NCBI RefSeq assembly: GCF_024700885.2
Contig: NZ_CP117016.1
Reading direction: 5' to 3' (one strand)
Length of the DNA stretch: 64,000 nt
DNA from: Escherichia coli
GTDB taxonomy: Bacteria; Pseudomonadota; Gammaproteobacteria; Enterobacterales; Enterobacteriaceae
Positions 39,301-45,300 of the stretch are shown here, in pieces (position 1 is the stretch's first letter; the number at the start of each line of letters is the position of its first letter). A program made the position numbers.

Positions 39301-42300
39301 GGTGTACTGGAACAGACGGCCCGGGCTTACATTGAAATCACATGGTGCCATTGAACGTCATCTTGGGTGTAGTGACTTTTAACGTCAGGTGATGCATAAG
39401 GGTCTTTCGCGGAGAGGCCCTGTTTACACAATTAAATAAGTCGAGTCCTCTAGGCTGGGCTGTGTGCACGCCCCCCCGTTCAGCCCGACCGCTGCGCCTT
39501 ATCCGGTAACTATCGTCTTGAGTCCAACCCGGTAAGACACGACTTAACGCCACTGGCAGCAGCCATTGGTAACTGGATAGTGGATTTAGATACGCAGAAC
39601 TCTTGAAGTTGAAGCCTTATAGCGGCTACACTGGAAGGACAGCATTTGGTATCTGTGCTCCATCAAGCCAGTTACCACAGTCGATTAGAAGAGGTCGAAG
39701 ACTTCTAATCGGACGGAAAAAGCCGCCGCAAGGCGGCTTTTTCCGTTTACAAGCCGAAGATTACGCGCAGCTTAAAAGGATCTCAAGAAGATCATTTTAA
39801 TTTTGCTGATCGTTGCGCCCTACCAGTGACCATACGGATAGGGCTTTTCCTTGATAAAATCGCGGATAAATGGATCGTAACCGTTAGCCTTGATGTAACT
39901 GAAATCAATCTTGTTGGGAACATTTTTGCATATCAGCATATCATCTCCCGTCAGGGTGAACTGTCGGGCAGGATTCTGGAGTACAACAGGATTACGATTG
40001 TCTTTTAACCATACCCTGACTTTACCACCGGGGGGCAGGCCAATAATCATTTTGTTTCGGTAATATATTTTTCCCGGACGATAAGTATCAGGATAGGCAG
40101 TCAGCATCTGCTGCCACGTATCCCGGCTGAACCAGATCTCCGTCTCATACGCCTTTTTATCGATAACTGAGTCCCAGCATACCGTCATCCTGACAGGCAG
40201 CGCCTTGCCAATATTAAAACTGGCTAAAAAACCGCCTACGTGCTGGCTCCATTTTCCCACACTGCTCTGACTGGGTTCAGTCGGATCCAGTCGCCGGAAA
40301 AAGCTCTCCCGGATATCCCCGTCCTCCAGATACACCATTGTCACCAGTGCCGGCAGATTTTTCGGGTAAAAAAATTGAATTCCCAGTGGTCGTAAGGCAA
40401 CTTCTGCCCCCATTGCTCCACGCCATCGCCCAGCAGCGTCCTCACACCAGCCCTACGGTCATGGCAGCCGACAGCCAGCATTACGCCCACTATCACGCCC
40501 ACCATCAGCGGTAATCGTCTCATTCCTGCCTCCTCAGAACAGTCCATCCAGCGCGCCTTGCGACGCCCCCGCCCGGTCCGCCATTGAGGTGTAGCCGAGC
40601 ACCGGCACAAAAAAGGCGCGAGCGCGCCATTGTGTCGTCACTAAGGAGTGTTCAGGAGGTCAAGCCCGGCGCCTGATTTTGCAGACGCGAGGAAAAGAGA
40701 CCGCGAAGCCCGGTGAACGACAAGGGGATGTAATGCGAGCCATCTTCCAGATTAGCAACCCGGTTCATATATCAGTAAAATACGGTCGCGCTCCCCTCCC
40801 CCTCTTTGCACAAAGGTATGAAAATGTATTCAGATCACCAACGTAGTTATCTGGCCCACTGGTTGACGTTAAGCGGCAAAGCCGAGGACTCGCTGACGCA
40901 AACTATTGCCAGCGCACGGGTTGATATGAATCCTCATCAGGTAGAGGCTGCGATGTTTGCGCTGGCATCTCCCCTGTCGAATGGCGTGATCCTGGCCGAT
41001 GAAGTGGGACTGGGGAAAACTATTGAGGCCAGCCTGATTTTGGCGCAAAAATGGGCTGAACGCCGCCGAAAACTGTTGCTGATTGCACCCGCAACGCTAC
41101 GCAAGCAGTGGAGCCAGGAGCTGGAAGAGAAATTTTCGCTGCCTTCACAAATTATTGAAGCGAAGATCTTCAATCAAATGGTTAAAGAGGGGAGCGATAA
41201 TCCCTTTGATATTGAAAATGCAACCGGGAAAGCGGCGATCTGCATTTGTTCATACGAATTCGCTGCCCGTAAAGAGCACGAGCTGGCACGAATCCCGTGG
41301 GATCTGGTCGTCATGGATGAGGCGCATAAACTGCGTAATATCTACAAGAACGATGGCGCTAAAACAGCCAAAAAACTCAGTGGCGCACTGTCCGGCAGAA
41401 AAAAAATACTGCTTTCCGCCACGCCGCTACAAAACAGTATTCTTGAGCTTTACGGCCTGATTTCCGTGATTGATCCTCATTTTTTCGGCGACCTTGCTTC
41501 GTTCAAGGCCCGTTATTCCCGACAGAATATTGACGATGCAGAACTGGCATTATTAAGGGTTCGTCTGAATAAAATCTGTAATCGAACGCTTCGTCGACAG
41601 GTTCAGCAGGAAGGCGGGATCAGTTTTACCCGACGCCATTCAATAACCGAAGACTTTCGTCCGACGGAAGACGAAGAAGTGCTCTATAAACAGGTTTCCT
41701 CTTATTTGCAGCGGGACGATCTACTGGCGATCAAAAGCGGCGCGCGTCACCTAGTAACGTTAGTCATTCGTAAAATTCTGGCCTCATCGTCTACAGCGAT
41801 CCAGGGAACGCTGGAAACGATGATCCACCGTCTTGAAAGTAAAATGCCGGTGCTGGATGCGCTGACGGATTATGAAAATTACGACGATTACAGCGATGAA
41901 GAAGGCATTGATGACGAAGATACCATCGATCCTCAGGCGCTACAGGCCGAAATTGACCAGTTAAAAAATTATAAGACTTTAGCGGCATCGATTACCAAAA
42001 ACGCCAAGGCCGAAGCACTGTTACGCGTTCTCGATCGGGCCTTTACCTTTACGGCTGAACTGGGCGGATTACGTAAGGCGGTCATTTTTACCGAGTCCGT
42101 ACGCACCCAGACCTGGCTGGCGCAACTGTTGTCAGAAAGTGGCTACGAGGGAGAAGTGGTTCTGCTCAATGGCAGCAATAGCGATGCGGTGTCGAAGAAG
42201 ATTTACAGCGACTGGCTGGAGAAACATCAGAACTCTGGCCGGGTTTCCGGTTCGAGCACGGCGGATATGAAGGCAGCGCTGGTTGAAAAATTCAGGGACG

Positions 42301-45300
42301 AAGGCACCCTGATGATTTGTACTGAAGCGGGCGCAGAAGGTATCAACCTCCAGTTTTGTTCGCTGTTAATCAATTATGATTTACCGTGGAATCCGCAGCG
42401 CGTGGAGCAACGTATCGGGCGTGTTCACCGCTATGGACAAAAACACGATGTCGTGGTGGTTAATTTTATTAATAAAGGCAACCGTGCCGATCAGCGCGTG
42501 TTTGAATTATTGAGCCAGAAGTTCCAGCTTTTTGAAGGGGTGTTTGGCGCATCCGATGACATTCTGGGGTCGATCGAATCAGGTGTTGATATTGAACGAC
42601 GTATTCATGAGATATACCAGCACTGCCGCTCCGATGAACAAATTGAACAGGAATTTAATCAGCTGCAGGATGAACTCAAAGATCAACTGGAAAATCGGGA
42701 GAATGAAACCCGGCGTTCATTATTCGAGCATTTTGACGTTGATGTGGTCCGCAATCTGAAAACCCGACGTACAACCACCCTCGCGCAGTTAAACGATTAC
42801 CAGGAAAATCTGTTGCTGCTGGCGGAAATGTTTCTGAGCGACGAGAGCGATTTTCAACGTTCTGAGACGGGTTTTCGTTCCAGAGGAAAGTATTTTGACG
42901 TCAACTGGCCCATTGCGGATGAAAAAGATGCCGAATTCTTCCGGCCCAGCCAGGGATATGGGAAGCAACTGATTGATGCTGCCCTGCATGAAGGGGCAAG
43001 CCTTTCCACATCCCCAGTTTGCCAGAAGCTCCATTTCATCTACCAACCCAGAAGCGGACAACTGGCCGATGTTAAACTGTTCTGCGGGAAATCGGGACAG
43101 CTGTTGCTGGCAAAAGTCAGCATCGGAAATCAGGAGCAACAGCGAGAGAAACTATTGACCGTCGCTGTTACAGAAAATGGCGAAGTGCTGGCAGAGGAAA
43201 CCGTATCCCGTCTGCTTCGCCTGCCATTATCAGAGATAACATCTGTCGAAGAACAGCCTTTGCTGCCTGCGTTAACAACACAATGTGAGGTTTTACGGCA
43301 TTCTTTTATCCAACAGGTCGAACGCGATAACGAACTTTATTACAATGAAGAAGTAGAAAAACTTGAACGCTGGTCAGAAGATCGACGTATCGCGCTGGAC
43401 TTACGTATCAAACAGTTAGATGCAGAAATTAAAGAGGCGCGTAAAGCCGCCCGTCAGCTTCCTTCTCTAAAAGAGAAAATGGAAGCCAAGCGCGCATTAA
43501 AGGTGCTGGAACGCGAGCGGGATAGCATCATGTTGCAGTATCATGATGAAAAGAAAAAAATCGAGCAGGAAGAGGACCGTCTGCTGGAAGAGGTCGAGCA
43601 AAAGCTGGCGACGGAAATAACGTCCCGTCAATTATTCGCGGTGAGCTGGACGTTGAGTTCACCTTCCGCATGAAGTGCTGTGGTTTCAGGAGTCAATAAT
43701 GGCTAACGGTAAGATATTAAGGCAACTAATAAAAGCGGGCGCAACGGGTGATACCGCTACTTTCCGTCGTGTTTCGGAAGCCATTATTGATGAGGAACGT
43801 CAGAAACAGCACCACCTTCTGGCTAACGATCTGGAGCATATTCTTTACGGCGATCGTCTTGTTCAGGCTTCGCGCTCGCCTGCGCTTCCTCAAGCACCGA
43901 TAGATAAAGAAAGGGGCCTGCCGTTGCTGGATCTCCGGCAGCCACAGCGCAGCCTTGATGAAATGATCCTCCCGGCGACCAGCGCTACAGTGATTGATGA
44001 ACTCCTTGAAGAGCACCGGCGTAGCGATGTATTGCATAGCTACGGGATGAAAGCAGCCAGTAAGATCATGTTTTTCGGACCGCCGGGCTGCGGTAAAACG
44101 CTGACAGCAGAGGTTATCGCTTTTGAACTGGACATGCCGCTGGCAATTGTCCGCCTCGACGTACTGGTGTCTTCGTTTTTGGGAGAAACCGCCGCCAATC
44201 TGCGTAAAATTTTCGATTTTATTGCAGAGCACCCAATGGTGGTGTTGTTCGATGAGTTTGATGCCATAGGAAAAGAGCGTGGCGACAGCGGCGAACACGG
44301 TGAATTACGCCGGGTCGTCAATGCCGTTTTACAAATGATGGATGCTTATCAGGGTAAAAGCCTGATTCTGGCGGCCACTAACCATGAACACATTCTGGAC
44401 AGCGCCATCTGGCGTCGATTTGATGAAGTGATTGAATTTCCGTTGCCGGATCAGGCGCAGTTACGTGAGCTGTTGGCGTTAAAATTACGCGGCACCCGCC
44501 GTCAGTTTGAGCTGGACGATAGCGAGCTATTATCCCTGCTGCTCGGGAAAAGCGGTGCAGATATTGAGCGCATTGTCCGTCGGGCAACCAAGCATATGAT
44601 CCTGCGTCATCAGGAATTCCTGACGCTAAAAGATTTAAAAAACGCAACTCAGCGAGAAAACGCCAGAACCCACCGATAAGGGACTGCCATGACGGCGAAT
44701 TATCAGCATCTAACGATTACCAAAGCACCACTTCAAAACGACCGACGGACCCGCAGAGTCAATATGCCCCGTATTCGCAGGGGCGATTTACGCCAGCACG
44801 GGCAAATGCTGTTGACGCAACTCCATACCTTGCGCCCAACGCTGGCACAAGTACCCGGCAGCGCCGATGACGGGCGCTATATCCTCAAGCTGAACTACAG
44901 CGGCACAATGAATTTTTCAGCATTGATACATCACGGCGTGGAGTTCATCAGTCAGGAAGGTAAACAGGTCTGTATCGTTTTCACTAATGAGCAGGGTCTG
45001 ACAACCTTCGAAACCCATCTGGCGCAACTGGGGCTTCCCCGTACGGACCTAACCTACAGGAATATTCTCGAAGCGCTTGACGGCATTGACGGCTGGTCGG
45101 CGGAAGATCGTAAAAGCTGGGCACTCCGGCGCTATGGTTTTCCTGTAGCGGAACGCTTTAATCTGGATGTGGAGCTCTGGCCAGTCGATGTGGCGCATCA
45201 CCCCAGACGTATCGACCTGTATACCCGTTTTGAAAATTGGCTCAGAGAGCAGGGGATTCTCTGGCGGGATAAAGTCAATCTGGACAGCCTGTTGATGTAC

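Follow-up and report, generated by a model that had tools for sequence, protein, structure and literature searches.

The DrmD-like SNF2 helicase IetH probably heads a Type III-like restriction-modification operon that carries IetAS as cargo

The gene for the SNF2 helicase IetH of Escherichia coli was found to lead an operon of five genes, the core of which is probably a Type III-like restriction-modification (R-M) system composed of SNF2, Mod, and Res, with IetAS as the cargo found in an Enterobacterales clade. The operon is located in a stretch of 64,000 nucleotides from contig NZ_CP117016.1 (assembly GCF_024700885.2), hereafter called the window. Comparison of gene neighborhoods indicates that the evolutionarily constant neighbors of the helicase are Mod and Res, and not the AAA ATPase and the S8 protease. 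What is new here is the SNF2-Mod-Res core with a swappable cargo slot across relatives.

The five genes are arranged in the order ietH-ietA-ietS-mod-res on the + strand, with gaps of 25, 9, 9, and 2 nt, and all of their catalytic motifs are intact. The helicase gene lies in an uninterrupted open reading frame from 40806 to 43673 (+). An earlier note on this DNA had correctly reported this frame, but its start is better placed at ATG 40824, which is the RefSeq start, is preceded 8 nt upstream by AAGG, and yields a product whose N-terminus corresponds to the "MY.." residues at which the homologues begin. It is therefore likely that TTG 40806 is merely the first possible start and that the protein (ietH, 40824..43673 (+); DrmD-like SNF2 ATPase; WP_000286652.1; PADLOC DrmD, PDLC02619) is 949 residues in length. 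The same note had placed the end of this gene 1 nt before the ATPase gene, a figure that derives from the longest reading frame (GTG 43675); the real gap is 25 nt to ATG 43699, the start of ietA. This gap contains an AGGAG ribosome-binding site (43688..43692 (+), identified by sequence match) that ends 6 nt before the ietA start. A candidate operon promoter, TTAGCA-18-TAAAAT (40752..40781 (+)), is found 43 nt upstream of the ietH start by consensus match, and the count of such sites in the region is not above that in shuffled sequences. No terminator-like site was detected on the + strand in any of the gaps among the five genes. The upstream flank contains an integron/Tn21-type block and IS elements, and the downstream flank contains IS3, IS30, and an autotransporter.

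The second gene, ietA (43699..44679 (+), RefSeq start), encodes an AAA+ ATPase of 326 residues that matches PADLOC IetA (PDLC02196, E 4e-105) and contains the Walker A (GPPGCGKT) and Walker B (VVLFDE) motifs. The third, ietS (44689..47076 (+)), encodes an S8 subtilase of 795 residues that matches PADLOC IetS over its full length (PDLC02198, 1206 bits) with all of the Asp/His/Ser triad motifs (DSGI, HGT, and GTSFAAP). These two are the putative embedded cargo genes. They are followed by mod (47086..48714 (+)), for a Type III β-class N6-adenine methyltransferase of 542 residues (PADLOC MTase_III PDLC03636, 967 bits; Pfam N6_N4_Mtase) with DPPY at residue 68 and FAGSG at 336, and by res (48717..51587 (+)), for a Type III restriction subunit of 956 residues (PADLOC REase_III PDLC03648, 2118 bits) with GVGKT at 76, DEAH at 224, and a C-terminal PD...EPK at 873. 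The GC3 of mod is 0.35, unlike that of the neighboring genes. From these motifs and the 2-nt adjacency, mod-res is assigned as a Type III R-M pair, for which hemimethylation at specific sites and cleavage, driven by ATP, of DNA lacking the mark are predicted; a search on the O104:H4 methylome returned no motif assignment for this Mod.

Classical Type III R-M systems consist of two genes. The same order of Mod (DPPY/FxGxG) and then Res (SF2 motifs and a C-terminal PD-(D/E)xK) is found in EcoP15I, EcoP1I, and StyLTI, whereas the subfamily described here has a conserved third gene, for the SNF2 helicase, upstream of this pair and often carries cargo. The Res of the window is only distantly related to that of EcoP15I (4zcf_C, E 8e-5 over ~106 residues) and scores 35 bits with PRK15483, for which the cutoff is 564, so that close kinship with the EcoP15I/StyLTI type is not supported.

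The window helicase corresponds, by residue numbering and gene context, to the IetH of the ietHAS system of E. coli (Liu-DS4), where it was first called AsaH (PMC13069673, NAR 2026; bioRxiv 10.64898/2025.12.08.692795). In that paper, IetH is described as a DrmD-resembling helicase that is encoded directly upstream of ietA-ietS and was acquired by IetAS; the mutations K65A and D165A in IetH abolish defense against T7, and mutant IetH renders the system toxic. In the protein from the window, GLGKT begins at residue 62 (with Lys65), DEAH begins at residue 165 (Asp165), and motif VI (QRIGRVHRYGQ) is at 529, so that the numbering of Lys65 and Asp165 corresponds exactly to the residues mutated in the published protein. 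The gene order is also the same, with ietH co-oriented and directly upstream of two genes that strongly match IetA and IetS, and the prevalence is similar (73 of 5426 complete E. coli genomes for the cassette, ">1.5%" in PMC13069673). Given this correspondence, the link between the helicase and IetAS is already known. The proposal in the earlier note of an uncharacterized accessory to the downstream modules thus survives with respect to the accessory role and not with respect to "uncharacterized". The only functional data (PMC13069673) connect IetH with IetAS and not with Mod/Res, and the accessible portion of the text discusses neither the downstream Mod/Res nor the C-terminal module of the helicase. 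All 73 of the E. coli carriers contain the five genes together, and therefore the data from E. coli alone cannot separate the partners of the helicase.

The two-lobe SNF2 ATPase core of IetH occupies residues 1-599 (40824..42620 (+)). The Pfam domains SNF2-rel_dom and Helicase_C fall within residues 49-544, in agreement with the earlier placement of the helicase motifs in the first ~560 residues, and the core is the best conserved portion of IetH among the relatives compared. The PADLOC DrmD model (PDLC02619) matches residues 32-668 with E 3e-201 and 669 bits. DrmD from class 1 DISARM is closely similar in the ATPase core, and a methyltransferase likewise adjoins it in a methylation-based defense locus; the DrmD models leave the last ~300 residues of IetH uncovered. 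These models give the best matches in both PADLOC and NCBIfam, as would be expected if the locus were a class 1 DISARM system that had decayed through the loss of drmA, drmB, and drmC. However, the match covers the ATPase core only and falls below the equivalog cutoffs (NF038318, DrmD_b, 662 bits against 950; NF038317, 249 against 610), and no drmA, drmB (DUF1998), or drmC (PLD) was found in the five operon genes, the flanks, or the loci of the relatives examined. The methyltransferase belongs to Type III and has a Res as its partner, and an intact three-gene core recurs in many phyla, which is unlike decay. We consider a decayed DISARM to be extremely improbable. The genes pglZ, brxC, and pglX are also absent from the operon and its flanks, and the layout is neither that of DISARM nor that of BREX, as had been noted from the lack of nearby DUF1998, PLD, PglZ, and BrxC genes.

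The model of the BREX helicase BrxHII (PDLC02500) scores 251 bits with IetH, mainly in the ATPase C-lobe, and the best stretch in two close relatives is 480-654. Residues 640-949 alone gave no match to PADLOC at 1e-10. The closest solved structure, by sequence and by fold, is RapA, the RNA polymerase-associated SNF2 ATPase of E. coli, and the similarity is confined to the ATPase core (TM-scores of ~0.3, from a full-length IetH model of low confidence). RapA is a housekeeping transcription factor, unlike IetH. This structural match, together with the ability of HmaA alone to defend against T4 (PMC11232893), would be compatible with an autonomous single-gene SNF2 enzyme, either defensive or housekeeping, that happens to stand at the head of the locus. 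Such an enzyme is very unlikely, since IetH contains no nuclease or effector domain, its C-terminal module has no match to a catalytic fold, Mod/Res are nearly always next on the same strand, and the HmaA model scores 163 bits versus 669 for DrmD. The HmaA match covers the ATPase core only, and no Pfam NOV_C nuclease match was obtained.

The loci of relatives were those of the 80 top-ranking matches out of at least 576 in data with one genome per species, and neighbors were counted by simple ORF calling and homology to the proteins of the window. IetS was found in none of these 80 loci, which are distributed over many phyla. Mod, usually with Res, is encoded downstream on the same strand as the helicase in most relatives. 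Among the 42 loci whose downstream sequence extends to at least 8 kb, Mod was recognized in 31 at the ORF level and in 34 when tblastn was included, and both Mod and Res were recognized in 28; ~8 of the 42 have no recognizable Mod, and some of these match only the N-terminal part of the helicase. At least three loci have contiguous helicase, Mod, and Res genes without cargo. When Res homologues were chosen independently, the helicase was found upstream in 4 of 4. A Providencia relative with a 91% identical helicase shares all five genes with the window. A stand-alone helicase with unrelated neighbors, which the earlier note had named as the case that would count against its proposal, was never encountered among the relatives examined.

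The interval between the helicase and Mod is either empty or occupied by diverse defense genes, and the interval between Mod and Res is occupied less often. An Aeromonas relative (72% identical) has AAA_21 and DUF4276 in this slot, and a Methylobacter relative (66% identical) has a Schlafen-like ATPase. Slot occupants match HEC-01A, SoFic, PDC-S02, PDC-S13, AbiU, PDC-S06, PD-Lambda-2_B, and AbiD, and 105 of the 162 downstream proteins were singletons upon clustering. The closest relatives of IetS outside of the cassette (62-70% identity) are encoded in two-gene IetA-IetS loci without SNF2, Mod, or Res (4 of 4 proteins), and such stand-alone pairs are found in Dickeya, Pseudomonas, Vibrio, and Klebsiella/Cronobacter. 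The absence of IetS from the 80 loci, the downstream Mod/Res, the helicase upstream of all four Res homologues, and the stand-alone IetAS pairs together argue that the cassette is a SNF2-Mod-Res system with IetAS in its cargo slot. Embedded defense cargo, as described by Payne et al. (2024), likewise consists of autonomous defense genes nested in the same orientation within a methylation-based host system, and the HEC-01A and PDC cargo families are identical to slot occupants found here. The host in the present case, a triad of SNF2 and Type III Mod/Res, is absent from the hosts listed in that report.

Alternatively, the helicase could be a dedicated third component of IetAS, in a toxin-antitoxin-chaperone-like ietHAS system, and the Type III R-M genes an independent neighbor in a defense island. 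The phenotypes of the K65A and D165A mutants described above are in favor of this arrangement, and RM III and ietAS have been reported to be co-localized non-randomly in E. coli with no known functional link. Against it, the helicase and its tail are found in many phyla with Mod/Res in the same order but without IetAS, the nearest outside relatives of IetAS are two-gene loci that lack the helicase, and the fixed order with gaps of 2-25 nt is unlike loose adjacency within an island. We regard this alternative as unlikely. The SNF2-Mod-Res reading is fully compatible with a dependence of IetAS on IetH that evolved secondarily in the Enterobacterales clade.

The last ~110 residues of IetH had been described as a charged, coiled-coil-like tail. 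The charge is evident (51% D/E/K/R versus 29% for the whole protein), and in the AF2 model of residues 600-949 (pLDDT 92, pTM 0.75) the region forms two long helices. Regular heptads could not be made out: the enrichment of hydrophobic residues at positions a and d in the best register was equaled by 40-66% of the shuffled sequences, in what is a crude test of low power. The model supports a charged antiparallel helical hairpin, and a canonical coiled coil only as a possible form of it. The modeled C-terminal module begins with a long connecting helix (residues 604-671, 42633..42836 (+)), followed by an α/β domain (675-810, 42846..43253 (+)), the 114-residue hairpin (helices 815-877 and 882-928 with the turn QLPSL, 43266..43607 (+)), and a long closing β-strand with a conserved LF.IRW motif in the alignment (931-945, 43614..43658 (+)). 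The pLDDT is at least 88 in each 10-residue block of the two hairpin helices, and from the fold we infer that the terminal strand packs back against the α/β domain. The α/β domain is the most variable part of IetH; its identity is 31-41% in relatives whose overall identity is 60-72%.

The C-terminal module is present in 2370 protein clusters (E <= 1e-10) and, with one exception among the best 150 matches listed, extends to the C-terminus. Searches of solved structures, Pfam, and PADLOC with the module gave no match, and the structural matches to the two packed helices are limited to generic helical hairpins. The hairpin is conserved across phyla, and 59-75% identity is retained in relatives with other or no cargo. 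Its retention regardless of the cargo argues against a docking role specific for IetAS, and, if the hairpin docks a partner at all, a constant one (Mod, Res, DNA, or another copy of IetH) is more probable than IetA or IetS. The hairpin, anchored on the α/β domain, could thus be a structural arm for such a partner rather than an IetAS-specific adaptor.

In the proposed mechanism for the SNF2-Mod-Res system, IetH would be a translocase or remodeling subunit that acts on DNA together with Mod/Res and helps to distinguish foreign DNA by its methylation; DrmD is assumed to play such a role in DISARM. IetAS would be a second-line toxic protease module, the release of whose toxicity would be restrained by IetA and ATPase-competent IetH. 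The anticodon nuclease PrrC, a latent toxic effector encoded within the EcoprrI Type I R-M locus, is restrained by the R-M proteins and guards EcoprrI. By analogy, IetAS may "guard" the state of the helicase and the R-M machinery. The two cases differ in the effector (a tRNA nuclease versus a protease), in the type of R-M system, and in the requirement for a helicase, and the likeness serves as a precedent for the guard reading.

The link between the helicase and IetAS was published in 2025-26, and the original observation, as stated, adds little. Reframed, the finding is that IetH-type helicases with this tail head Type III-like Mod-Res operons in many phyla, and that the inner genes are exchanged. 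More tentatively, SNF2-Mod-Res may constitute a distinct and widespread three-component Type III-like class, defined in at least 2,300 protein clusters by the C-terminal helicase module, in which the SNF2 hub assists restriction or methylation and licenses the abortive-infection cargo of the slot (IetAS, HEC-01, Schlafen-like ATPases, SoFic, AbiD, AbiU, and others); the published need of IetAS for IetH would in that case exemplify a general coupling of restriction to swappable second-line effectors. Should the helicase prove to be a genuine third subunit, a large group of "Type III" systems would be misdescribed as having two genes, IetH-type proteins would be wrongly filed as orphan DrmD matches, and new defense genes could conveniently be sought in the slot that separates the helicase from Mod. 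It would also offer a concrete model of the wiring between a restriction system and an abortive-infection module.

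The cassette consists of five tightly packed open reading frames, all on the + strand of the window. The first encodes the SNF2 helicase (40806/40824-43673), which was matched by the PADLOC DrmD model PDLC02619 with an E-value of 3e-201 over residues 32-668 only. It is followed by an AAA+ ATPase (43675/43699-44679; PADLOC IetA), an S8 protease (44689-47076; PADLOC IetS, 1206 bits over the full length), a DNA methyltransferase (47086-48714; PADLOC Type III Mod, 967 bits), and a large SF2 ATPase/nuclease (48717-51587; PADLOC Type III Res, 2118 bits). The RefSeq helicase is WP_000286652.1, a protein of 949 residues that starts at the ATG at 40824, and this start is supported because homologues share the initial "MY.." residues. 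The RefSeq start of the ATPase, the ATG at 43699, is supported because an AGGAG sequence sits 6 nt before it. The intergenic gaps along the cassette are therefore 25, 9, 9, and 2 nt, respectively, and the 1-nt gap previously reported between the helicase and ATPase genes is an artefact of choosing the longest open reading frames. The catalytic motifs were found to be intact throughout, including those of the helicase, which fall within the first ~545 residues, as had been proposed for its N-terminal part. [quoted passage not shown] Directly after res there is an open reading frame of 97 residues (51676-51969), which is annotated as hypothetical (WP_001091149.1) and has no NCBIfam match.

The helicase is DrmD-like, and its match to the NCBIfam DrmD model (662 bits) is below the curated cutoff of 950. 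Membership in DISARM or BREX was rejected, since the curated cutoffs are not reached and the partner genes are absent, flanks included; the conclusion of the earlier note that this is not the layout of either system was upheld, with no genes of either one among the flanking genes. Hma was rejected on the basis of a weak HmaA match and the absence of the NOV_C domain. MADS was considered because an HTH gene preceding a related E. coli helicase is labelled "mads1" in RefSeq, and it was also rejected. According to the MADS preprint, MAD6-8 are the mandatory proteins and MAD1 is a widespread regulator; the PADLOC matches to mad3 and mad8 are generic ATPase similarities, and the locus is not MADS.

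Under the name ietHAS, the locus has already been described as an E. coli IetAS system that carries an additional, DrmD-like SNF2 helicase, IetH (PMC13069673; NAR 2026, preprint December 2025). In that report, the K65A (Walker A) and D165A (DEAH) variants of IetH lost protection against T7, ietHAS was toxic when IetH was mutated, and the prevalence of the system in E. coli exceeded 1.5% of genomes. The Walker A lysine and the DEAH aspartate of the 949-residue helicase from the window are residues 65 and 165, respectively. The number of E. coli genomes is the same for the helicase, for IetS, and for the whole cassette (73 of 5426 complete genomes), 65 at ≥99% identity and 8 at ~85%. Because the residue numbering and the prevalence agree, the helicase belongs to the IetH protein family and is probably the same allele. 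The suggestion that the helicase is an uncharacterised accessory to the downstream modules is partly supported, and its link to IetAS has meanwhile been published (PMC13069673). Wu et al. have found that the co-localisation of RM III and ietAS in E. coli is non-random.

Gammaproteobacteria commonly encode full-length homologues of the helicase with 63-95% identity. When one genome per species was scanned, 80 helicase loci were retrieved, the best 80 of at least 576 matches and hence a sample rather than a census, from Proteobacteria, Bacteroidota, Firmicutes, Actinobacteria, Chloroflexi, Planctomycetes, Verrucomicrobia, Spirochaetes, and others. Most of these align to residues 1-944 of the helicase. 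Neighbors were counted from simple ORF calls and homology to the proteins of the window. IetS was found at none of the 80 loci. A full-length helicase ORF together with ≥8 kb of downstream sequence was available for 42 loci. Of these, 31 have a Mod homologue downstream on the same strand at the level of ORFs, or 34 when tblastn matches are included, and both Mod and Res were present in 28. Comparative genomics of the neighbors, as the earlier note had advised, has therefore revealed conserved downstream partners, but these are Mod and Res, with IetAS being swappable.

The spacing of the genes is variable. Of 46 loci, 19 have Mod at most 200 nt from the helicase and 22 have it more than 1 kb away, and Mod and Res are separated by >200 nt at 15 of 32 loci. 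Providencia (helicase 91% identical) shares all five genes with the window, while the arrangements are SNF2-AAA_21-DUF4276-Mod-Res (HEC-01 cargo) in Aeromonas (72%) and SNF2-Schlafen-like-Mod-Res in Methylobacter (66%). A Pseudomonas locus (L010) has the triad with no cargo. Two further versions of the architecture were observed in E. coli strains A37 (L091) and 2014C-3011 (L092): one is SNF2-Mod (1042 aa)-Res (1126 aa), adjoining a tRNA-Leu gene, and the other is HTH-SNF2-AbiD-hypothetical-Mod-Res. Distant relatives of the helicase are found in 184 further complete E. coli genomes. In many relatives the start of the helicase gene is adjoined or overlapped by a small RHH or HTH gene, which probably encodes a controller protein and which RefSeq names "mads1" in one E. 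coli strain (L082, 9777-10004; L092, 8308-8508; L093, 3014-3199; L094, 3072-3251; L095, 322-528; all locus-internal coordinates). No small ORF of this type was found upstream of 40824 in the window.

The intervening genes are diverse, and clustering left 105 of 162 downstream proteins as singletons. The recurrent ones are genes with a known or candidate role in defence, namely a HEC-01A-type ABC ATPase with DUF4276, Schlafen/AlbA_2 + HATPase_c_4, SoFic, the DUF1016/YhcG nuclease (PDC-S02), Bro-N (PDC-S13), AIPR/AbiU, PDC-S06, PD-Lambda-2_B, and AbiD. In one proteobacterial subclade (L085 and L093-L096), the slot is usually filled by the Schlafen/AlbA_2 + HATPase_c_4 protein (~425 aa), and in L096 it occupies both slots, before and after Mod. 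In this subclade the protein may represent a regular fourth component and not casual cargo.

The association was also approached from Res and IetS. Homologues of Res and of the helicase share many contigs, and four Res homologues were taken from contigs outside the helicase list (Ralstonia, Pseudomonas solani, Janthinobacterium, and Thiolinea). All four are found in the arrangement [RHH]-SNF2-Schlafen-like-Mod-Res. The next-closest IetS proteins outside the ≥88% clade are 62-70% identical and come from Dickeya, Pseudomonas putida, Vibrio cholerae, and Klebsiella/Cronobacter; no SNF2, Mod, or Res was found at these loci, all of which are two-gene IetA-IetS pairs. In V. cholerae (L100/L101, 7014-14055) the stand-alone pair is immediately followed by an OLD-TOPRIM ATPase and a UvrD-like helicase (Gabija-like), and it rides a conjugative element with TraN and TraU.

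The cassette is compositionally mosaic. The GC3 of Mod is 0.35 versus 0.46-0.56 for the other four genes, and relative to the IetAS-bearing cassettes of E. coli CP55 and Providencia, Mod is 68% identical versus 90-93% for Res. This comparison suggests that the methylase, or its target-recognition region, was exchanged while the rest of the operon was conserved. A search of open-access papers on the O104:H4 methylome yielded no recognition motif for this Mod.

The 12-kb stretch with the five genes has a 100% identical counterpart in the chromosomes of several E. coli strains, among them O104:H4, where it lies within an island adjoining tRNA-Phe. The upstream flank carries an integron/Tn21-type block and IS elements, and the downstream flank carries IS3, IS30, and an autotransporter. 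The resistance-element block (26966-37282), which the O104:H4 version of the island lacks, contains IS21-family IstA/IstB (26966-29261), Sul1 (30065-30991, - strand), a class 1 integron integrase (32061-33074), a serine recombinase/resolvase (33753-34313), and a Tn3-family transposase (34316-37282); an IS1 transposase fragment is at 38447-38950. The autotransporter ORF (55637-59755; 1372 aa) is intact with a match to the β-barrel domain, and its counterpart in O104:H4 FDAARGOS_349 is annotated as pic and is frameshifted. Further upstream, 11476-13445 and 21033-23002 hold sets of ORFs of identical lengths, offset by 9557 nt, in a GC-rich block (0.62-0.67). Judged from ORF coordinates only, the pattern points to a ~2-kb direct repeat, which may consist of duplicated insertion sequences or transposon ends.

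The C-terminal tail of the helicase had been described as charged and heptad-like. The charge was confirmed (51% of residues versus 29% for the whole protein), but in a crude test the heptad periodicity was not above that of shuffled sequences. The AlphaFold model of the whole helicase is mediocre (pLDDT 67), whereas residues 600-949, modeled from a 61-sequence alignment covering many phyla, gave a pLDDT of 92 and a pTM of 0.75. The predicted module is composed of a long helix (604-671), an α/β domain (~675-810), two long antiparallel helices (815-877 and 882-928) joined at QLPSL, and a final β-strand (931-945). In this model the tail is one structural element of a larger module and not a free appendage. 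No Pfam model covers the module, and no PADLOC model matches it at 1e-10. A profile of the module matched 3899 protein clusters at E ≤ 1e-3 and 2370 at E ≤ 1e-10; it forms the C-terminal end in all but one of the best 150 matches listed, and the full-length proteins are ~940-1000 residues long. In relatives with other cargo the identity of the helical hairpin is 59-75%, and that of the α/β domain only 31-41%. Conservation of the hairpin alongside other cargo argues that it is not an adaptation to IetAS, and any partner that it docks is more likely to be a constant one.

The evidence points to Mod and Res as the conserved partners of the helicase and to IetAS as swappable cargo. The most parsimonious interpretation is insertion of an autonomous IetAS module into the cargo slot of an SNF2-Mod-Res system. 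No prior description of SNF2 + Type III R-M triads was found in a search of open-access papers. The architecture is the same as the "embedding" described by Payne et al. (2024) for Hma, BREX, DISARM, and Type I R-M, but the host here is a Type III-like triad, which is not among the hosts listed by those authors. IetH might also play a part in restriction or methylation. In a guard arrangement, for which PrrC and EcoprrI are a precedent, IetAS would monitor the helicase/R-M machinery, and the toxicity published for ietHAS with mutant IetH fits such a role. What the present analysis adds to the known ietHAS locus is evidence for Mod and Res as the conserved partners of the helicase, with IetAS as exchangeable cargo.
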